Positions 1,426 through 64,000 are shown, counted from the first letter of the stretch. The stretch: DNA of 64,000 bases from Candidatus Heimdallarchaeota archaeon (GCA_018238545.1 JABCTC010000003.1:58876-122875), one strand, 5' to 3'. Numbers and translations: made by a program. The notes: generated from the letters alone by a model not told the origin.

Positions 1426-2977
1426 TTAGGTACTCACTCCAGCTCCGGGGGTAAGCAGATGACTCTGCTTTGTCTGTAGCCATTGGCTCAAGACAGGGAA
1501 AACACGAAAAGAACTGAGAGGGAAATATTTTCCTGTAAGTTGATCTTTTATTGAAGTATACTTTGGTTGCAGAACATATTTGATCAGTCTTTTAGCTATA
1601 TTCTTCGCTCCATTCAAGTCAGCATTGAGGTTATACCCACAAGTCTGGCAGGTGAATGTAGGTTGGTTATGACGAGTAGTGAGATAGGAACCACAGCGAG
1701 AACAAGTAGAAGAAGTCCATGATTCATTGATGGCTAGTATCCTGTGTTCTTCCCAGCCATTAAGTGAGAGCTTGAATTTGAGTAATTCTATCACTCTCCT
1801 ATAATTCCATTTGTGGACACTTTTACGTGTGCTCGGTTTTTGGTTTCCCCTATATTGACTCTTACGGATGTTATGGGGGAAACCTACTACCACATGGAGA
1901 TCATACCTCTTTCCTAAGGAGAGAATGTACTTGACAAGTTTGTTGACATAGGTATGGTCGGTTAGCTTATGTTCCGTTCTTTGTCTCTTTCGGAGTAGTT
2001 TAAGTTGATAAACAACTTGTTTTCTTTTTCCAAAACTCAAACTAGGTTTAGCTAGAACCTTTTGCAGTTTAGAGGTTTTTTGTTCAGTTTCCTTTAGCAG
2101 TTTTTTTCTTGTCTTATCAGACCAAAATCTGATCTCATGTTGGTTGATTGTTCCTTTCGGAGTTAGAAGCGCACTTACTGCACGTTTATTGATTCCTAGA
2201 TCTATCCCCAGCACAGCTGGAGGACGAGATGAAGAATATTTATCTGGAACATGAAGCAGGATGAAATGTACCCACCATTCCTTTTTCTTGGGAGAGTATA
2301 GTACTTCTAGAGCTTGTATTTTCCCTTGGTGGATTTTGTACTCGTGATAGGGTGAACAAGCCAGAGGTAACCATAGTTTCTCGTGATTGCGAGTGTTATT
2401 CTTCTTTGTATCTAAGGAGTCTCTTATCCCCACCCACCATCGAGCGATGGAGTTTGAAGGAGTACAAGTAAGAACAAATCTCTTCTTATTCGCTGATTGT
2501 GTTCGTGGTATTTTCTTTGGTAAGGTTTTTTTTGTAGGGGAAGAGTTGAGTGCTTGTTGGCTGTGATAAATAGCTGTAGCATTGTCTCTACATTCTTGTA
2601 GTTCATCATGAGAGGAGCGAGGAAAGCGCCTCTTCAAATCATGTCTAACCTTAGGACGAGATGCATGTGTAGTATTTTTTGTTGTTGTCAAGGTAAGTTG
2701 ATCTAGTTTAACTTTATTCACCTTTTTCTTCCCACTTTTTCCACTGATAAGGTGATCTTCATTATGGTAAATGACCTTAAGAAAATGGTGAATGGTTCTT
2801 GTATCTCTCCCTGTAATCTGTTCCAACCTTCTCTGTTTACGAGCTGTGAGCACTTCTGTTTTAATTCTCGCTTTTACAGTTGTTCTCACTCTACTTCTCG
2901 TCATTCAGGAATCATTACTTATAGTAGATTTTCCTATAAAAAGCTAACATTAATATGGGAAAATGGGTAGAAACTAC
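1212..2977 (-). mobile_element. Non-autonomous tnpB-only element (IS200/IS605- or IS607-related)
   Basis: Contains only tnpB; visibly more GC-rich than flanks; bounded by CATG at 1208-1211 and 2978-2981; imperfect inverted cores CCCACTTTCCCCATA (1222-1236) and TATGGGAAAATGGG (2954-2967), each 10 nt inside the CATG; subterminal hairpin 1223-1249. Confidence 0.7.
1426..2904 (-). CDS. tnpB: RNA-guided endonuclease TnpB, 492 aa, rearranged RuvC-II
   Basis: RuvC-I VLGIDLG; RuvC-II position reads VVGFP (no Glu); alternative Glu in INESWTS; zinc finger CSRC...CQTC; RuvC-III NADLNGAKNI. Confidence 0.93.
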   Translation of the reverse strand: MTRSRVRTTVKARIKTEVLTARKQRRLEQITGRDTRTIHHFLKVIYHNEDHLISGKSGKKKVNKVKLDQLTLTTTKNTTHASRPKVRHDLKRRFPRSSHDELQECRDNATAIYHSQQALNSSPTKKTLPKKIPRTQSANKKRFVLTCTPSNSIARWWVGIRDSLDTKKNNTRNHEKLWLPLACSPYHEYKIHQGKIQALEVLYSPKKKEWWVHFILLHVPDKYSSSRPPAVLGIDLGINKRAVSALLTPKGTINQHEIRFWSDKTRKKLLKETEQKTSKLQKVLAKPSLSFGKRKQVVYQLKLLRKRQRTEHKLTDHTYVNKLVKYILSLGKRYDLHVVVGFPHNIRKSQYRGNQKPSTRKSVHKWNYRRVIELLKFKLSLNGWEEHRILAINESWTSSTCSRCGSYLTTRHNQPTFTCQTCGYNLNADLNGAKNIAKRLIKYVLQPKYTSIKDQLTGKYFPLSSFRVFPVLSQWLQTKQSHLLTPGAGVST

Positions 2978-12386: not shown

Positions 12387-13123
12387 GTAGCTCTCCACAA
12401 TTCAATTGCTATTATCTTACCATTTTCTAAGAATAATCTTGGAATATAATCATCTGCTACAAATGAACCATCTTGTAATGAAACTTTGGATTCAGTACCA
12501 GGTTTTTCAAGATTTTCTGGAGCAATGTAAAGCGAATCATCTATAATAATGTAATCTCTAATGCTCTTATCTATTGGTGGTAGTATTTCTAATTGTTTTA
12601 TGACGTGTTCTACATCTATGACCTTTGTATCAATAGTAGAACTATATCTACGTTCAGTTTTAGCGATTACTGCTTTCTTAGTTTCAGTTTTTGGTTTTGG
12701 TTTAGCCTTTGGTTTAGCCTTTGGTTTAGCCTTTGGTTTAGCCTTTGGTTTAGTTTCAGTTTTAACTGTTGGCTTTGGAGTAGATCTTTTAATTACTGCA
12801 GCTTTGACTGCCCCAGATTTTGGTTTTGGAGCAGATTGACTTGTAGCTTGAAAGTTGCACGCTTCATCTACTGCTTGAAAAAATTCGTCGGTTGAATATG
12901 ATTCTTCTAAGTTAACAATTTTGTAACCAAGTTCCATCCGAACTCTTGCTGTTTCCCTTGCACAAGCAAATTTTGAATGTGGAGATGCTTGTTCTCCTAT
13001 CCAAGTGTAAATTTTCTTCTGTAAGTGAGAAATCACTAACAAGACGTTTTCGGATTTTATTGCTACTTCCCTATTAGAACATTCAGCTAACTCACCTGAA
13101 GATTGTATAATGTAAAGACTCAT
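12383..13123 (-). CDS. Single gelsolin-domain protein with Lys/Pro linker and C-terminal extra domain (1DGelX-like architecture)
   Basis: N-terminal VLLVISHLQKKIYTWIGEQASPHSKFACAR matches the gelsolin-repeat pattern; KPKA repeats; compact C-terminal beta-rich domain. Confidence 0.7.
   Translation of the reverse strand: MSLYIIQSSGELAECSNREVAIKSENVLLVISHLQKKIYTWIGEQASPHSKFACARETARVRMELGYKIVNLEESYSTDEFFQAVDEACNFQATSQSAPKPKSGAVKAAVIKRSTPKPTVKTETKPKAKPKAKPKAKPKAKPKPKTETKKAVIAKTERRYSSTIDTKVIDVEHVIKQLEILPPIDKSIRDYIIIDDSLYIAPENLEKPGTESKVSLQDGSFVADDYIPRLFLENGKIIAIELWRAT
12696..12753. repeat. 12-bp tandem repeat (TTTGGTTTAGCC) x4.8 encoding (KPKA)n
   Basis: Four perfect units at 12696-12743 plus a partial unit; flanked by direct repeat TTAGTTTCAGTTTT (12678 and 12750). 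Confidence 0.95.
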
Positions 13124-13418
13124 ACAAGAAGGTTACCCATACTTCATTTTTATACTTGGTGATAGCTTCAAGAGATTTTCTAAATTTGTTCAATAACTGG
13201 TATTCTATCTGGGTTCCTTTCCGCAAAAAAATTAATGTTTTTTCCTTCTATAACAAGAGAATTATAATCATCAGATATAGAATGCATAATTTGATGTGAT
13301 ATAAAAAGAACTTTCTTATATTAGTTCACAAAAGTTTTTACGAGCAAATGTTAAATACTCATTCTACAATATAGTTTTGTAGGATATAGTCTTAATATTT
13401 ACAGCAGAGGATAATATT

Positions 13419-14282
13419 ATGAGTTCAAAAGTTATTGAATCAATTGCTTATTCATATATTGGTAGATTAGTTGAACCTTATTTAGCTGAATTTGACGGTC
13501 TCAAAATGACTTTAAGAAAAGCTGGAATAGATAAAAGCGTAAGAATGTACCTAAGTGTAAGAATCTTTTGGGCAATAATTTTAGCTGTAGTTTCATTGAT
13601 ATTTCTGATTGCTATTTATATTATAGTTCCAGAATTTTCGATAATTTTAGTGATAATATTACCTATACTAGTTCTTACGAGTATGTTTGTATATAGTTGG
13701 GTTTACCCTAGTTATCTTGTAGGAGAAAGAAAACGAAAGTTGGAAGCGGCTTTACCGACTGCAGCAAGTTACATGACTGCAATGGCCTCAGCTGGGGTTA
13801 CACCAGATAGGATTTTTCTTTCTTTGACAAAAGAAAAAATTGGTGAAGCTATTGTTAAGGATGCAAAGAAAATTTCTAGAGATATTCAAGTTTTTGGTTA
13901 TGATATTGTTCTTGCTTTAAGTCAAGCATCTCTTAGATCTCCATCACCCAAATATTCAAGCTTCCTTGAAGGAATTGTTGGAACTTTTACTTCAGGAGGA
14001 GAACTTCAAAGATTTCTTGAAGTATCCACTGAAACTCTAATGAATGATAAAGTTCAAAGTGAAAAGAATTTCATTGAAGTCCTAGGAATCATGGCCGAAC
14101 TATTCATGGTTCTAGGTGTAGTCTCTCCAATCTTCTTTATAGTTATTTTAGCTATGATGTCAATGCTTGGAGGATCATCTGGAAATTCTACAACAATGAT
14201 GGCAGTTTTAGTTTATATAATTATTCCAGTTTCAGAAATGGCGATTATTGTGCTCATAGATGCACAACAACCAGAAATGTAG
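13419..14282 (+). CDS. Type IV pilus membrane platform protein (T2SS F / TadC / ArlJ family)
   Basis: LRKAGI, LEAALPTAASYMTAMASAG, SPSPKYSSFLEG, SGGEL; TM segments. Confidence 0.9.
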   Translation: MSSKVIESIAYSYIGRLVEPYLAEFDGLKMTLRKAGIDKSVRMYLSVRIFWAIILAVVSLIFLIAIYIIVPEFSIILVIILPILVLTSMFVYSWVYPSYLVGERKRKLEAALPTAASYMTAMASAGVTPDRIFLSLTKEKIGEAIVKDAKKISRDIQVFGYDIVLALSQASLRSPSPKYSSFLEGIVGTFTSGGELQRFLEVSTETLMNDKVQSEKNFIEVLGIMAELFMVLGVVSPIFFIVILAMMSMLGGSSGNSTTMMAVLVYIIIPVSEMAIIVLIDAQQPEM

Positions 14283-15221
14283 GTGAATGAAATGTCAGTA
14301 GGTGAAGAAGTAGAAGTAGAAACAAAACAGTTTCAAATTACACAAGATATAATTTATTGGGCGATAGCTATCGCTTCTGGATTAATTTTAGTTACACTCG
14401 GTATAGTAGATGTTATTGCCACAAGTCAAGGTAGTGACTTTATAACGATTTTAGACATTAATGATTTCGTCATCTTAGCAATAATCGTTGTCATAGGTAT
14501 CCCCACATTTCTAATTGTTCTAAGAGAAGAAAGAAGACAATCAAGAATTGACGAAAATTTACCTTATCTTCTTCGAGAGATTAGTAATGCACAACGAACA
14601 GGTATGAGTTTACCTAGAGCAATTCAAGAATCTGCTAAAAGGCATTATGGACCATTGACTCCTGAGCTGAGAAAAATGTCAAGCAAAATTACTTGGGGAA
14701 TTCCATTTAGCAAAGCAATGACTGACTTTCAAACTGCTGTAAATACTCCTTTGGCCCAAAGAGCAACTGTACTTATACTTGAAGCAGAGAGGTCTGGAGG
14801 AAATCTCGAAGATATTTTTGAAGCAACTGAGAACCATATTCAAACTCTTCTTAATCTTAAGAAAGAAAGAGAAGGGGCAATGAAACCTTATGTTATGATA
14901 GTCTACGCTTCCTACATAATTTTCATCATGGTTGTCGTTATCTTATTTGTAACATTCTTTATTCCATTCGGTTCAGCAAATATCTCGCCAGATCAAACAG
15001 CTGGGATGTTTTTACTGGAAATAGATTTAGATACGTTGGAGATATTATTTTTACACATGCTTGCTGTTCAAGGCTTTTTCTCGGGTCTTGTAGCAGGAAA
15101 GATGTCTAAAATGTCTGTTAAGGCTGGCTTTATGCACTCAGTTGTGATGATGTTTATTGGTTGGTTTGCATTCAAAATACTTATTCAACCTGACAATCCA
15201 TTGATTTCTATAAATGTATAA
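14283..15221 (+). CDS. Second type IV pilus membrane platform protein (T2SS F family)
   Basis: IDENLPYLLREI, GMSLPRAI, YGPLTPEL, EAERSGGNLEDI, QGFFSGLVAGKM; probable true start ATG 14292 after AGGTGA. Confidence 0.9.
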   Translation: MNEMSVGEEVEVETKQFQITQDIIYWAIAIASGLILVTLGIVDVIATSQGSDFITILDINDFVILAIIVVIGIPTFLIVLREERRQSRIDENLPYLLREISNAQRTGMSLPRAIQESAKRHYGPLTPELRKMSSKITWGIPFSKAMTDFQTAVNTPLAQRATVLILEAERSGGNLEDIFEATENHIQTLLNLKKEREGAMKPYVMIVYASYIIFIMVVVILFVTFFIPFGSANISPDQTAGMFLLEIDLDTLEILFLHMLAVQGFFSGLVAGKMSKMSVKAGFMHSVVMMFIGWFAFKILIQPDNPLISINV

Positions 15222-15239
15222 TAAAACGGTGAAACTAAA

Positions 15240-15668
15240 ATGCCTAAATTAGAAGATGATGTCAAATCTCTAAAAGATGAGATTGAGGAAGTTAAACGAG
15301 TTGTAAATCAAATCAGTTTTAATATTGTAAGAATGATGGGTAACCTAGACAAAGCAGGGGGAACGAGCTCTTCAGGTGATTCTGAAGGATCTATTGGTTC
15401 TGTTTCGGTTGATTTGGGTCCTTTAGAGGATAAGATTGATAGAATAGAATCAATGATGAGCACTAAATCAGATTTAGCTGAACTAAGAGAACAAGTTGAA
15501 AACGTTGCATCTGAAAAGATAAAAAATGCAGAGAGTATGCAAGAAAGAGCTACTAATCTACTTGAAAAAGGCATGGAACTAGTTGAACTAGAAGCCACTT
15601 TAGCAGAGATTAAATCACTACTAGAAGAACGCATATTGGGCGATGATTCAGAAGAAAAAGGAGAATAA
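15240..15668 (+). CDS. Coiled-coil protein in the pilus operon
   Basis: Acidic heptad-rich 142-aa ORF preceded by GGTGA; co-oriented with platform and pilin genes. Confidence 0.65.
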   Translation: MPKLEDDVKSLKDEIEEVKRVVNQISFNIVRMMGNLDKAGGTSSSGDSEGSIGSVSVDLGPLEDKIDRIESMMSTKSDLAELREQVENVASEKIKNAESMQERATNLLEKGMELVELEATLAEIKSLLEERILGDDSEEKGE

Positions 15669-42081: not shown

Positions 42082-45000
42082 CTATTTCTTTACTTTTTCT
42101 TCGATTACTTGTGTAGGGTATTCTGATAATCTGAATAGAGCCTCTTTCAATGTTTCAGACAGATCTATAATGTTGGTGTCACCGTTTTCTATAAGGTACG
42201 GAATGACAGATTTTAAACCTTCTATAACGGGACCAGTATTTTCTTCAAACTTCATTCGAGCAACAAAACGAATAATATCACTCATTACAATTAACCGTTC
42301 CCTATTTTCATCCATAGCTCTTCTATATTCTGGTTCTAGAAACAGCCTTATTTCCCAGTCTTTACCACTACTTACTGCTTCAACATTAGGAAAAGTGAGC
42401 ATTGATAGCACCTCAGTTTTTGTTTCGTAAATTTCTTTTGGTATTAATCCCAGTGTGATGAAATGGCCGTTCTTATCGCTAGACAACTCTATATCATTTT
42501 TAATAAAAAATGTACTAGTTAATCTTCCGTATGTATTGATGATTTCAGTGAAAGTATTTCCTAGAGCTCGCATATTCAGATAAAGATTGTTCTCAAACTC
42601 ACTTCTAGATTTACTTTTACCCCAAGCTCGAAGCACTGCATCTGCTACACGTTTTTCGCCACTAATCATCTGATTATATGATTCATCTATAACATAATCA
42701 GGTATTCTTCTGTACAATAGGATTGACAATGCTATCTCCATGAAGTTTTTGGGTAAATCTCTAAATTCTTTTGGATGAATTTCATTTATTGTGTTTAGTA
42801 TCTCTTTTTGTGCTCGTTTGAGCGATATCGTGAATTTACCATATTCTAATCTTTGTAATTTGAATATATCTCCAGTCCAACTGGTAACATTCCTACTAAC
42901 CTCATTAAGGTGACCACTAAGATCTATACTAACATCTTTTGACCATTTCTCAACAACTTTTGTCATTTGATCATTTAATGGATTCCAGTTTTTGAGTAGG
43001 TTTTTTCTAATATCTTTCAGCTCTTTGCTTGCCTTATTGTATAAACGCATAGCTTTCTTCTTGTAGCTCAAATCGTTCTTTCTCAAGTTAGAAAATCCTG
43101 TTAAAAGATTTTGAATGGTTTTATGGATTTTTGGCGCATAATCATTCCAGCTTTCTTGACACCTAACATGGAAATGTTTTCCTGCGAACTTCTGAGGTAT
43201 ATCTCGAATCTGTGGGAAGGATGGGAAACCATTTTGAATGTCTGGTAATCGGTGGGCTGGTGTTAGTTTACCCACCATTTCTCTGTTGAAAACTGTTATC
43301 AACGTATCTATAAGATTTATGACCTTTCCTTCAAATGTAAACATTTTTTGTAAATATGAGGAAACCATCCCTCGTAGAATTGCTTTAGCATAGGCTTTCT
43401 TTAGGGTTTTTGAATTCGTAAAACAAGTAGTGAGAAACTCAGCATCTTTTTCAACATCTCGTAATGGAAATATCTTATTTCCTAAACTAACTGTAACTCC
43501 CTGTTTTTGTAGAAGTTCATTTGATGAGATTGTTCTACCATCAAAACGTAGATACGATTCTCTGAAAAATGGGCGTTTATTTTGCACAGGAACCGAATTA
43601 ACATATGCTTTAATTTCACCTTCATCAATTGCTGCACCAATTAGATCTTTTGCTGTTAAACTCATTTGTTTAGCTGTTTCATAACCCCTATACTTGACAT
43701 CAACTATGACTTTTGATAGAATATTGACAAGTACAGTCTTTGGCGCAATCTCTCTAAATGCATTGATCATATAGGTAAAGATATCCCCAAGATTGAAATT
43801 AAACAGCTGGTCTTTCACCATTTTCTCTAATGTGGTGATAATCGCTCTTTCTAATGCGCTTGCAAACAGCACAGATTCTTCAATATTGGAAATTTGCAAC
43901 TGTTTTCCAACTCCCATAGTATTGAATTTATCAATAAGTTGTTTGATCCATTCAGGATGAATATTTGTTAGTTTGGATAATCTATCCTTTACAATTCCAC
44001 GTTTAAATTCAATAGAAGTTTTAGCTGTTTTCTTAGTTGTAGACTTTTGAACAATCTTCTTTTCATCTAATATTGAAAAAGTGAAATCAATTATGACATT
44101 CCATATGCTTGTAGGTAATTTTCTGCCAGCAAAGGGATCGATTAGTTGTTTAAAGAACAGTCTTGCTCCTTGTAGAACTAAAGGAGTAACATCTTCTATA
44201 AGACCATTACAGATTATACTTCCAGGGTCTGGAACATCTGTTAAAGTTGTAATTTGATTTTGTATTGCAGTATACAGCGGAATATTACGAAAATCAGTTA
44301 GAGTATGTAATGGGTTATCTTTTGCAATCTTGTAAATGATCTCTTTTGCGAGATTATTTGCTATGAAGGTTTTTGCAGTGTGTATCTCACTTATATTCAG
44401 TTTCTTCAAGTGAACATCAACGTTCTCTTGAAGGTTTTTCGCTAAGTAGAGATCTATTAATTCCTCTGGTTTGAATTGCTTCTCACGTAAATATAATTCA
44501 ATGGTATTCCTTATTTCTTCAACCGTATATCTCGGTGTTTCATATTCTAGTATAACAAATGGATCTTCTAAGATGATTTGATTGAGAATATCTTGTGCTA
44601 CCATCTGTACTAATAATTGTCTCTTAAAGGGGGAAATTGACCCTTTATCCCAAGATGTTTCTTCTTCTCCAATCCATTGTTTGATGTCTTTAAGCTGTAA
44701 GACCGTGGGAAAATCCACAGGTTTATTTTCTATTAATTTGAGTTTTGCTTTTATCAGATTAATTAAAGCATCATTATTCTTACTTACTGCAACCTTCTGT
44801 TTAGCAATTGTACAAGCTTTGAGATATGCTTTCGATACGTAATCTAAAGATATCATTTTTCCTGTAGCTAAATTCCTGTGAAAGTTTGGTGTCAAGGTGA
44901 TAAATTTACAAAATGAAAGTGCTAATTCTTGAACTAACATTTCATTTTCTTTTGAGAGTTTGTTTGCTTCATCTGATTTGACAACATATTGAACAACAAC

Positions 45001-45231
45001 GGTGTCAGATTCTTCAGATATTGTAAAGGTACCAAATTTTACAAACTCATTTTCACCTGTCATAAATTGTGAATTTGAAACCTCAACTTCTGTAGTCATT
45101 AAAGATTGAAGCGAAAGTAAGATTCCTTGCATCATACTTGAGTCTTTAGCTAATCTACCTACTGTTGCAAAACTTATTCCGGAATCACTTCCAGTTGAAA
45201 TCCATAAGTCGAAAGGGAAGTTTTTTGACAT
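42082..45231 (-). CDS. Large 1049-aa protein with probable N-terminal longin-like domain and helical body
   Basis: DLWIST..SGISF...MMQGILLSLQSLMTTE...beta strands...helix fits the longin pattern by eye. Confidence 0.55.
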   Translation of the reverse strand: MSKNFPFDLWISTGSDSGISFATVGRLAKDSSMMQGILLSLQSLMTTEVEVSNSQFMTGENEFVKFGTFTISEESDTVVVQYVVKSDEANKLSKENEMLVQELALSFCKFITLTPNFHRNLATGKMISLDYVSKAYLKACTIAKQKVAVSKNNDALINLIKAKLKLIENKPVDFPTVLQLKDIKQWIGEEETSWDKGSISPFKRQLLVQMVAQDILNQIILEDPFVILEYETPRYTVEEIRNTIELYLREKQFKPEELIDLYLAKNLQENVDVHLKKLNISEIHTAKTFIANNLAKEIIYKIAKDNPLHTLTDFRNIPLYTAIQNQITTLTDVPDPGSIICNGLIEDVTPLVLQGARLFFKQLIDPFAGRKLPTSIWNVIIDFTFSILDEKKIVQKSTTKKTAKTSIEFKRGIVKDRLSKLTNIHPEWIKQLIDKFNTMGVGKQLQISNIEESVLFASALERAIITTLEKMVKDQLFNFNLGDIFTYMINAFREIAPKTVLVNILSKVIVDVKYRGYETAKQMSLTAKDLIGAAIDEGEIKAYVNSVPVQNKRPFFRESYLRFDGRTISSNELLQKQGVTVSLGNKIFPLRDVEKDAEFLTTCFTNSKTLKKAYAKAILRGMVSSYLQKMFTFEGKVINLIDTLITVFNREMVGKLTPAHRLPDIQNGFPSFPQIRDIPQKFAGKHFHVRCQESWNDYAPKIHKTIQNLLTGFSNLRKNDLSYKKKAMRLYNKASKELKDIRKNLLKNWNPLNDQMTKVVEKWSKDVSIDLSGHLNEVSRNVTSWTGDIFKLQRLEYGKFTISLKRAQKEILNTINEIHPKEFRDLPKNFMEIALSILLYRRIPDYVIDESYNQMISGEKRVADAVLRAWGKSKSRSEFENNLYLNMRALGNTFTEIINTYGRLTSTFFIKNDIELSSDKNGHFITLGLIPKEIYETKTEVLSMLTFPNVEAVSSGKDWEIRLFLEPEYRRAMDENRERLIVMSDIIRFVARMKFEENTGPVIEGLKSVIPYLIENGDTNIIDLSETLKEALFRLSEYPTQVIEEKVKK

Positions 45232-45341
45232 ATTCTCACACTTGTACTGAATTCTAACGCTCTTATTTCTTAATGTATGATAGCGTTAATATTGTTTTTT
45301 CTATTGGTAACTAAACTAATAGAATATTTATACATCAAACT

Positions 45342-46775
45342 ATGATGAGTTTTTGTCTTGTTGTCATATAAGGACAGCTTTAGTTGAGTATATTTATTAG
45401 AGGTCAACATATAAAACTATAACAGTTCTATACTAACTCTGAGTGGATACATCACGTATCCTCCTACCCCGTTCACCGTGCGTTTAGGCAAGGCTTTCGG
45501 ATCGCTTTTGAGTAGAATATTGTATGCAGCATTGACATCAGCGTTAATGAGATGACCTTGAGCGGTTCGAAACAACCCTCGAGTAACTCTCCGACCAGCA
45601 TAGTTTTTCCTGGCTTGGGGAAATTCATTATCAAGGAAACTAGACTTGGAAGTGTATTCTTCGGGAATCATCTCTACCTTTATCCCTCGTTCTGCGCCCT
45701 TATACTTCAAAATGTTGATAATACGTAGAAAGGGGATGGTGACGAACATTTGGTTGATCTTCTTCCAGAACTGCACCCCTTGTTTCCACTTCTCATTGTA
45801 ACCGATGATAACCTCGTGCAGCCCTCTTTCCACCCACAAGTCAAGTAAATAGCAAGTGAGTTTGTGGATAGCGTCCTTCAATTTCCTCCTCCACTTTTCT
45901 CGGAGTTTGTAGTAGGTATGACCATAGGTCAATCGGTTCTTTCCTGTCAGTTTTTGTCTTTGCTGTTGAGCGTATTGTATCTGTAATTGTTTCTGTTTTT
46001 TTAGATAATATTGGGTTATGGATTTTATCCCTTTCCCTGCATCTTTGACAACAATCGGTTGCCCACCGAGGTTATCCACAAAGGTAGCAATGTTGATTAT
46101 CCCTAAATCTACCCCTCCTTTTCGTATAAACTTTTTACGAAGTTTAGGCAGAGTTTTCTGATAGACTAACTCAAGGGTATACCCAGGTCTTCTTGGGACG
46201 ATTCTCACCTCTCGCAAATCCGTGTGAGAAGTCAATCGTGTCTTGTAAGTGAATCCCACTTTCTTCGGCAGAACCAGCCATCCATTGACAATCCTCGCTT
46301 GTTGGTTGGTAAAAATAGCTACCACTTCCCCATCCTTTTTTTTGTAATTAGGTGGGCGGGGCATAGCGAAGAAATCTCCAGGGTTGACTTTCCACTCTTT
46401 CATTGCTCGGAAATACCCCTTCCAGTTTCTACAGAGGAGTTTGAGCGAATGTTGGGCGGTGTGAGCAGGGAGAACACGATAACACTCTTCATGGTTGAGT
46501 AACTTGTTGAGATCATTGTAAAAGAGGAGTTTGTTCTGTTTGTTCAATGAGGTTTTTATCAGAAAATTCGCTCGATTATAGAGATTTTTAGTTTGATGAC
46601 AAAGCTTGCTCAAGACAAGATGATACTTTACTTCTATACACTCCACCCTAGGAACTTTAGCCATCTCTTATTTATCTAGAGATTCTTATAAAAACTCCCG
46701 TAATATTCACTTTAACCACCCATTTAAACTGATACAATTGTTAGTTAATATGACTGCATGACAAAAATATATCAT
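45342..46775 (-). mobile_element. Non-autonomous tnpB-only element with imperfect terminal inverted repeats
   Basis: 45341-45369 TATGATGAGTTTTTGTCTTGTTGTCATAT versus reverse complement of 46748-46776 TATGATATATTTTTGTCATGCAGTCATAT (23/29 identical); AACT at 45338-45341 and 46776-46779; higher GC than flanks. Confidence 0.75.
45417..46664 (-). CDS. tnpB: RNA-guided endonuclease TnpB, 415 aa, rearranged RuvC-II, zinc finger absent
   Basis: NLYN, GVDLG, IIGYNEKWKQ, PEEYTSKSSFLD, RVTRGLF, INADVNAAYNI. Confidence 0.95.
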   Translation of the reverse strand: MAKVPRVECIEVKYHLVLSKLCHQTKNLYNRANFLIKTSLNKQNKLLFYNDLNKLLNHEECYRVLPAHTAQHSLKLLCRNWKGYFRAMKEWKVNPGDFFAMPRPPNYKKKDGEVVAIFTNQQARIVNGWLVLPKKVGFTYKTRLTSHTDLREVRIVPRRPGYTLELVYQKTLPKLRKKFIRKGGVDLGIINIATFVDNLGGQPIVVKDAGKGIKSITQYYLKKQKQLQIQYAQQQRQKLTGKNRLTYGHTYYKLREKWRRKLKDAIHKLTCYLLDLWVERGLHEVIIGYNEKWKQGVQFWKKINQMFVTIPFLRIINILKYKGAERGIKVEMIPEEYTSKSSFLDNEFPQARKNYAGRRVTRGLFRTAQGHLINADVNAAYNILLKSDPKALPKRTVNGVGGYVMYPLRVSIELL

Positions 46776-46848
46776 AACTGAACAACGTAAAGTTTAATAA
46801 TCTCCCGATAAATCTTTCCATGAATTACTATTAACATGGGATTAAAAG

Positions 46849-49673: not shown

Positions 49674-49736
49674 ATACTATCAAGAAAAGGTGACACGCTA
49701 GCTATAAAAAAGATTTTGAAATGAATATCCAACAAA

Positions 49737-63767: not shown

Positions 63768-64000
63768 TTCACTGTAAGCAACAGTTGAAAGAAATATTGC
63801 TCAATCTTGCCAAAAAACAGAAAATTTTTCGTAAGAGCAGTAAAATTAGAACTATGTTAGTAAGAATTGGCAGAGCAGCATACATGCAAGGAGTATCAGC
63901 TAGCACTATGAGGAGGTGGGAGAAGGAAGAAAGAATCCTCCCTTGCAAGAGGACAAGAGGAGGACACAGGAGATACAAACTCTCCCAGATGATAGGAGAA
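63768..64000 (+). mobile_element. Left part of an IS607-family element
   Basis: TnpA start at 63854; palindrome ACTGT-AAGCA-ACAGT at 63771-63785 just after the epimerase stop; left boundary approximate. Confidence 0.6.
63854..64000 (+). CDS. tnpA: IS607-family serine transposase, N-terminal part truncated by the window edge; absent from the ORF track
   Basis: Hand translation MLVRIGRAAYMQGVSASTMRRWEKEERILPCKRTRGGHRRYKLSQMIGE is the MerR-like HTH of IS607 TnpA. Confidence 0.85.
   Translation, partial: MLVRIGRAAYMQGVSASTMRRWEKEERILPCKRTRGGHRRYKLSQMIGE

Follow-up and report, generated by a model that had tools for sequence, protein, structure and literature searches.

A 1.43-kb insertion element lies on the minus strand at positions 45342-46773 of a 64,000-nucleotide stretch of Candidatus Heimdallarchaeota archaeon DNA (JABCTC010000003.1:58876-122875; the whole of this stretch is referred to below as the window). 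Its extent was established by multi-copy alignment and by comparison with empty sites. The sole long open reading frame (ORF) of the element is tnpB and, as a preliminary description of the locus had stated, no transposase gene is found inside. The genome around the window is metagenome-assembled (3.63 Mb in 128 contigs, 92% complete). The features of the locus, with sequences given in the sense of TnpB, are the following.

45322-45341, minus strand: predicted guide template, 20 nt of host DNA directly 3' of the right end, AGTTTGATGTATAAATATTC
45342-45369, minus strand: inverted repeat of the right end, ...ATATGACAACAAGACAAAAACTCATCAT, with two tandem GACAA motifs and the terminus TCAT
45360-45378, minus strand: terminal hairpin of the right end, the 3' arm of which is the inner repeat motif
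45342-45510, minus strand: predicted omega-RNA scaffold of ~170 nt, overlapping the last ~95 nt of tnpB
45417-46664, minus strand: tnpB, intact, 415 aa, identified by Pfam, NCBIfam and AlphaFold2 (AF2) fold matches
46665-46773, minus strand: left end, 109 nt before the start codon, including the inverted repeat at 46748-46773 with two GTCAT motifs
46774-46777, minus strand: target-adjacent motif TTAT (ATAA on the plus strand), host DNA outside the element

Beside the right end is a 1049-aa ORF (42082-45231, minus strand) with no Pfam match; a DUF211 gene is the neighbor on the other side.

The genome holds at least ten full-length and more than 20 partial copies of the same family, which share 72-92% nucleotide identity; nine of ten full copies retain open reading frames of 415-421 aa. 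In the multi-copy alignment homology among copies starts at the left boundary and ends exactly after CATCAT, the flanks diverging beyond, and the right end is invariant across 19 copies. Shortened derivatives also occur: a 205-bp miniature (contig C111:9862-10066), in which ~35 nt of left end are fused to ~165 nt of right end with the RNA scaffold retained, and an internally deleted copy that keeps both ends (C48:4559-5325). The element is common in Heimdall-group (Asgard) archaea and the focal locus is unremarkable within this TnpB-only family, which extends across the Heimdall group; one of the sister genera in which Y1 transposases occur (g9) also carries 7-11 copies. Multiple copies of a single tnpB between conserved ends are the hallmark of the IS1341 group – elements of ~1.4 kb with a single tnpB, many copies and an RNA that overlaps the gene at its 3' end, whose means of movement is unknown (PMC9956272, PMC4615843) – and the focal family is like that group in having one tnpB flanked by two defined ends, left and right, in size, in copy number and in RNA overlap.

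The tetranucleotide AACT is present at 45338-45341 and 46776-46779, immediately beside both ends as drawn in the preliminary description, where it was proposed to be a target-site duplication. We compared the flanks of the 23 copies for which both are available, using those same boundaries: 4-nt identity was found in one of the 23, which is the focal copy itself, and the eight empty sites show no duplication. The pair of AACT sequences is thus a coincidence, and the conserved target motif TTAT accounts for two of the four bases. The focal site is empty in three congeneric genomes, where the plus strand reads ...CAAACT|ATAA..., that is, TTAT joined directly to AGTTTGAT (TnpB sense); the empty allele that a duplication would have left, CATCAAACTGAAC, was not seen. 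For five copies from other Heimdall genomes the present genome offers clean empty sites, all of which consist of (N)TAT plus the right flank, with no repeated bases past the AT common to TTAT and TCAT. TAT precedes the left end in every one of the 23 copies (TTAT in 17, ATAT in three, CTAT in two and GTAT in one; the tally was made after correction of a 2-nt offset in two rows). The alternative boundaries that had been offered for the element – a target-adjacent motif TTAT and a right end TCAT – match both the multi-copy alignment and the empty sites. On insertion the element comes to lie on the 3' side of TTAT and has TCAT as its own terminus; the target is not duplicated, and element and target have no more than the dinucleotide AT in common.

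Insertion 3' of a motif of 4-5 nt without duplication is a property of IS200/IS605 elements. The same core dinucleotide at the left junction, the right end and the target, again with no duplication, is a property of IS607 elements, the dinucleotide here being AT and not the usual GG. Direct target repeats flanking the inverted repeats, as in elements of the IS630 type, are absent: the empty sites exclude duplication of AACT and likewise duplication of TA (IS630/mariner type), since they retain TTATAG rather than TTAG. Within one genus, species differ in whether they carry the focal insertion, and the same applies to at least five further insertions. Elsewhere in the window, positions 49726-49731 are a candidate empty site for a copy from another Heimdall genome (L077); the flanks are ~75% identical and the junction is not cleanly readable.

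The ends themselves are related by inversion. Positions 45341-45369 and the reverse complement of 46748-46776 are identical at 23 of 29 positions, a score reached by none of 2000 shuffles and none of 2000 random pairs of 60-mers from the window (maxima 21 and 22). The inverted repeat recorded in the preliminary description is therefore real and passes the shuffling test that was proposed for it; also present in both arms are the two GTCAT-like motifs said to lie 8 nt apart, here in the form GTCWT. More exactly, each end carries two TTGTCWT units with an 8-nt period that start 11 nt from the terminal AT, and the orientation of the units is inverted between the ends. Short direct motifs near both ends in combination with an imperfect inverted repeat are as found in IS607 elements. 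A strict motif-pair pattern has 42 matches in the genome, nearly all at the ends of family copies, and a weight matrix of the end has 47, of which 46 are at family ends (with left and right ends in opposite orientations) while the remaining match is weak (17.7 bits) and probably due to chance. The repeats are thus family-wide, contrary to the possibility – raised as a potential refutation – that other copies would lack them. The accompanying proposal, that a search with the motif might uncover miniature elements or an autonomous partner, held for the former, in the shape of the two shortened derivatives described above; no partner was found in this genome.

Variation at one end is mirrored at the other: in some relatives the two ends both carry GTCAAT, in others both carry GTCTCC. 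Among the 23 copies, left ends score 22.2/36 against their own right ends and 20.9/36 against the right ends of other copies, a result reached by six of 10,000 permutations; the copies being mutually related, the test measures co-variation between subfamilies and not independent events. The ends are conserved and co-varying, which needs selection on end recognition. Pairing between the left and right ends in a transcript was set aside because the mismatches of the focal copy are not wobble-compatible, weak evidence obtained by eye.

These observations bear on a reading in which the copies no longer transpose. Old insertions would be preserved by TnpB cutting of empty alleles and repair from the sister chromosome, and the differences in presence and absence between species would reflect ancient events or precise loss. 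Copies that are no more than 72-90% identical and yet keep their reading frames in nine of ten cases are what such a process might leave; no transposase was found; and archaea with many tnpB genes and little recent mobility have been reported (PMC10691335). Homing, however, cannot create new loci, and the focal and at least five further insertions are polymorphic within a single genus. Derivatives as short as the miniature nevertheless keep both ends, and the conservation and co-variation of the ends speak for selection on their recognition. We regard this reading as very unlikely.

Alignment of 36 right ends reveals conserved stems with compensatory pairs (pair composition CG 19/AU 9/UG 3/GU 2/UA 1 in one case and GC 23/AU 6/UA 3 in another). 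The hairpin GGATAC/GTATCC at 45445-45461, to which attention had already been drawn, exists and is one of the conserved stems of the scaffold, with compensatory GGGTAC/GTACCC in one relative. The hairpin at the right end, which doubles as the final stem of the predicted guide-RNA scaffold, is retained in nearly all 36 copies although its stem has changed (GTTGTC/GACAAC, CTTGTC/GACAAG, CTTGG/CCAAG, TAGTC/GACTA). Covariation across the 36 right ends thus delineates a predicted structured RNA that overlaps the 3' end of the gene, as the preliminary description expected, and that ends at the right boundary, as is typical of TnpB elements; no match to the scaffold was found in Rfam. The guide that had been predicted, given above with the features, follows from the TTAT/TCAT boundaries, and the same flank adjoins TTAT in the empty sites. 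From what is known of TnpB biology, the stretch 45322-45341 is predicted to serve as the guide.

TnpB matches the Pfam domains OrfB_IS605 and Cas12f1-like_TNB, and NCBIfam guided_TnpB at 135.8 bits. An AF2 model made from 29 relatives (predicted local distance difference test score 86, predicted template modeling score 0.82) has its best fold matches in ISFba1 TnpB, ISDra2 TnpB and Cas12f (E ~1e-16), with Fanzor2 only 20th; this fold search was informative, whereas a direct sequence search of the PDB with TnpB matched only a nuclease designed by artificial intelligence. The fold is RuvC-like with an Asp-Glu-Asp triad – D186 (VDLG), E335 (IPE-x-YTSK) and D376 (NADVNAA), each invariant in the 29 relatives – in which the glutamate is shifted: the canonical RuvC-II position is occupied by an invariant glycine (G288, in IGYN), and the invariant glutamate is found six residues ahead of the position of the first zinc-finger cysteine. 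The C4 zinc finger expected between RuvC-II and RuvC-III is absent, with no CxxC pairs in any copy (the region reads YTSKSSFLD...RGLFRTAQGHLINAD). The nearest protein relatives outside the Heimdall group (P0121-P0128) are ~45% identical.

A glutamate shifted toward the C-terminus is known from several TnpB clades and from Fanzors, pro-Fanzors being defined by a DPG motif (bioRxiv 10.1101/2023.08.09.552727), and rearranged catalytic sites and loss of the zinc finger are on record for some large TnpB branches (PMC10691335). The focal protein is like those of the RIIr clades, pro-Fanzors and Fanzors in having glycine at the canonical glutamate position and a shifted, invariant glutamate. It is unlike them in that RuvC-I contains DLG (VDLG) in place of DPG, in that the zinc-finger cysteines are missing, and in its host, an archaeon as opposed to a cyanobacterium, eukaryote or giant virus. 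The parallel with Fanzor elements drawn in the preliminary description is accordingly weak, extending to the shifted RuvC-II glutamate and not to the DPG motif, and a target-duplicating, Fanzor-like transposon in Asgard archaea is not supported.

Other tnpB genes are present in the same genome. The window contains a further TnpB-only gene (1426-2904, minus strand, 492 aa) of a different family from the focal one; its product falls below the NCBIfam guided_TnpB cut-off and matches the IS607_TnpB and Cas12f2 models weakly. Another TnpB family with several copies, its proteins ~41% identical to the focal one, is represented at C8:73366-74538, C62:24430-25605, C78:13524-14696, C124:29837-31009 and C80:20-1150; its copies have conserved flanks beyond the gene, and short end fragments are found elsewhere.

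An enzyme that moves the element was not found encoded in this genome or in 23 related ones. More distant relatives were obtained from viral sequences. Single-protein scans of viral and of metagenome collections gave 0 and 4 loci, respectively, and a profile scan of a viral contig collection gave 80. The TnpBs of these 80 loci show 32-41% identity and have the signature YTSK[CS]SFL in common. In 16 of them a gene of ~200 aa, directly upstream and on the same strand, matches the model of an IS607-type TnpA, and for four of the 16 Pfam confirmed an N-terminal helix-turn-helix (HTH) region together with a Resolvase catalytic domain. A Y1 gene was found by model at none of the 80 loci, and by Pfam at none of ten upstream neighbors of the closest loci that lack tnpA. 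One viral element, present in two copies (L124/L125, 1956 bp), is preceded by GTAT and ends in ACAT, so that it has the NTAT/NCAT end pattern in common with the Heimdall family; its two ends carry TGATCAAA-like motifs in tandem, inverted from one end to the other. In a tree of 160 TnpBs the Heimdall family forms a clade (support 1.0) that is separated from Y1-associated outgroups (0.96).

One explanation for movement is that the element belongs to the IS200/IS605 elements of the IS1341 group and is moved in trans by a Y1 (HUH) TnpA through single-strand 'peel and paste'. Cleavage would then occur at TTAT on the left and at TCAT on the right, with similar recognition sequences at the two ends giving rise to the inverted repeat as a by-product. 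A 4-nt motif on the 5' side of the insertion, the lack of a duplication and a preference confined to the left side are all as this explanation predicts, as is a conserved, covarying hairpin 19-20 nt from the right end; Y1 transposases occur in sister genera of the same family, g9 among them with its copies of the element, and plasmids and viruses, on which the transposase could be carried, are often missing from metagenome bins. A search for Y1 transposases (PF01797) nevertheless gave no match in any of 24 genomes of the genus, this one included, although the same search was positive in six of 14 control genomes and in the sister genera. What defines IS200/IS605 ends is a Y1 transposase together with subterminal hairpins on a single strand; the focal family has the right-end hairpin but no conserved hairpin at the left (the left ends of one subfamily fold at 0.0 kcal/mol), and its two ends resemble each other in inverted rather than direct orientation, through motifs that are themselves tandem direct repeats. 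As for the sister genera, their Y1 elements, considered as possible partners, are classical hairpin IS605 elements with an unrelated TnpB and unrelated ends. Among the viral relatives, too, the count is 0/80 for Y1 and 16/80 for a serine transposase. The label 'IS605-type', which the preliminary description had attached to the alternative boundaries, is therefore not supported, and we consider movement by Y1 distinctly unlikely.

A serine transposase (N-terminal HTH, C-terminal resolvase catalytic domain) is likewise not encoded in the element, in which 109 nt separate the left boundary from the start of tnpB, and the weight-matrix scan, having found family ends only, revealed no autonomous partner with the same ends in this genome. 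The genome does contain a resident IS607-type element (a TnpA of 234 aa and a TnpB-like ORF of 648 aa), which was rejected as the partner because its end motifs are unrelated. This resident element, whose TnpA has HTH and Resolvase domains, is situated on contig C71 at ~12850-15580; positions 63768-64000 of the window (the contig end) are 98% identical to its left end, and more than ten solo right-end fragments of the same family, ~86 nt each, are found on other contigs.

Three paralogous small serine recombinases (C6:7206-7922, C88:39681-40478 and C26:28943-29692; 238-265 aa, catalytic domain N-terminal) are a further potential source of activity. Of 29 genomes of the taxonomic family, 27 have recombinases of this kind, and every genus with the element is represented among them; 52 other genomes of the class lack them. 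Their family-wide distribution takes in genera without the element, on which ground they were rejected as the specific mover: they resemble host genes and can count at best as unspecific candidates. A Cas1-like transposase was rejected as well, the only candidate being a 106-aa ORF with a weak match to the Cas1 N-terminus (29 bits; C36:20616-20831, L117:1489-1809). The literature on ISTvo1 and on Asgard TnpBs with inverted repeats yielded nothing useful.

Recognition of the ends by some other enzyme – a DDE transposase (with a 2-bp AT or 4-bp AACT duplication), an Asgard Cas1-like transposase or a host-like small serine recombinase – is a second explanation, and one that we judge unlikely. Symmetric, co-varying ends are in keeping with it. 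TnpBs linked to Asgard Cas1 homologues and to IS630 DDE transposases are on record, the latter (DDE-6 branch, Altae-Tran et al. 2023) with symmetric ends around tnpB (PMC10691335). The AT at both junctions could formally represent a 2-bp duplication, and the small serine recombinases accompany the element in every genus that has it. The focal element resembles the IS630-linked TnpBs in the symmetry of its ends; it differs in having neither a DDE gene nor a TA duplication. IS630 relatives duplicate TA, and the empty sites refute duplication of TA and AACT alike. In addition, the preference for a target motif is confined to one side, no other gene is carried by any element with these ends in this genome, the Cas1-like candidate is only a fragment, and the small recombinases behave as vertically inherited host genes.

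On balance we think it probable, by a modest measure, that the element is a non-autonomous TnpB-only insertion sequence of IS1341-style layout that belongs to, or derives from, the IS607 kind and is served by a serine transposase in trans. The family is best read as a transposase-less variant of IS607 with truly terminal, symmetric repeats and an AT core, and an IS607-type serine recombinase supplied in trans is, by analogy with that family, most likely the mover. Of the original proposal that a transposase recognizing the terminal inverted repeats acts in trans, the 4-bp duplication fails, whereas recognition of symmetric, double-stranded ends by a trans-acting enzyme survives.

IS607 elements are reported to have imperfect inverted repeats and short direct motifs near their ends, to make no duplication, and to have a core dinucleotide common to ends and target; they are also described as lacking terminal inverted repeats (PMC6188088). 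In CboIStron, a member of the IS607 family, the only difference between the target-adjacent motif TGGG and the right end, TCGG, is at -3, and it lets TnpB spare its own template (bioRxiv 10.1101/2023.11.20.567912). Compared with this family (IS607, IS1535, ISC1926; CboIStron; ISXfa1), in which a serine-recombinase TnpA is combined with TnpB, the focal element is alike in several respects: there is no duplication; the last dinucleotide of the target motif recurs in the right end and in the target; position -3 distinguishes the target motif from the right end (TTAT/TCAT, as TGGG/TCGG there); short direct motifs lie near both ends in inverted orientation; and the predicted TnpB guide RNA ends at the right boundary. 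Moreover, the closest transposase-carrying TnpB relatives of the focal family have a transposase of this kind. It is unlike the family in that tnpA is present neither in the focal element nor, with matching ends, in the genome, and in that its core is AT rather than GG and its repeats are truly terminal and equidistant from both ends.

Several points weigh against this assignment. An AT core is palindromic and gives a serine recombinase no cue to orientation; known IS607 members use GG. Known IS607 repeats are at unequal distances from the ends, whereas those of the focal element are symmetric. None of the copies carries a serine transposase, the resident IS607-type element has unrelated end motifs, and no other element in the genome carries the ends of the family. 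In the tree the Heimdall family is sister to, and not nested in, the clade that holds all serine-associated relatives, with weak support (0.26-0.46). A strong, asymmetric preference for TTAT is equally expected from a Y1 transposase. Finally, because the copies are only 72-90% identical, recent activity is not established.

If an IS607-type serine transposase acts in trans, then it would bind the repeated motifs at both ends, and strand exchange at the AT core would yield a circle with a near-palindromic joint, CATC-AT-GAT. As predicted from the sequence of the ends, this joint (...CTCATC-AT-GATATA...) would be flanked by symmetric motif pairs. The donor would be left scarless, as TTAT plus the right flank. 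TnpB, guided by an RNA read from the right end into the flank, might then cut the empty joint such that the element is copied back, and the T-to-C difference at -3 (TTAT vs. TCAT) would spare the right end of the element itself from TnpB. The transposase may reside on a virus or plasmid that the bins lack; alternatively, the copies may be all but inactive. There is also a slim chance that the Heimdall lineage keeps and occasionally moves the element without a dedicated transposase, through a host recombinase (for example a small serine recombinase acting at the AT core) or through TnpB itself.

Whether TnpB-only elements of the IS1341 type move autonomously or are decayed copies of IS605 or IS607 elements is an open question, for which this family offers a clean case, with exact boundaries, co-varying ends, an AT core and no cognate transposase found in 24 genomes. 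The protein – a compact TnpB of 415 aa with no zinc finger and a shifted glutamate, a simple TTAT motif and a well-defined predicted scaffold – may be of interest for genome editing. Movement without a dedicated transposase, if true, would be a new route by which TnpB elements spread, in the archaeal group closest to eukaryotes.

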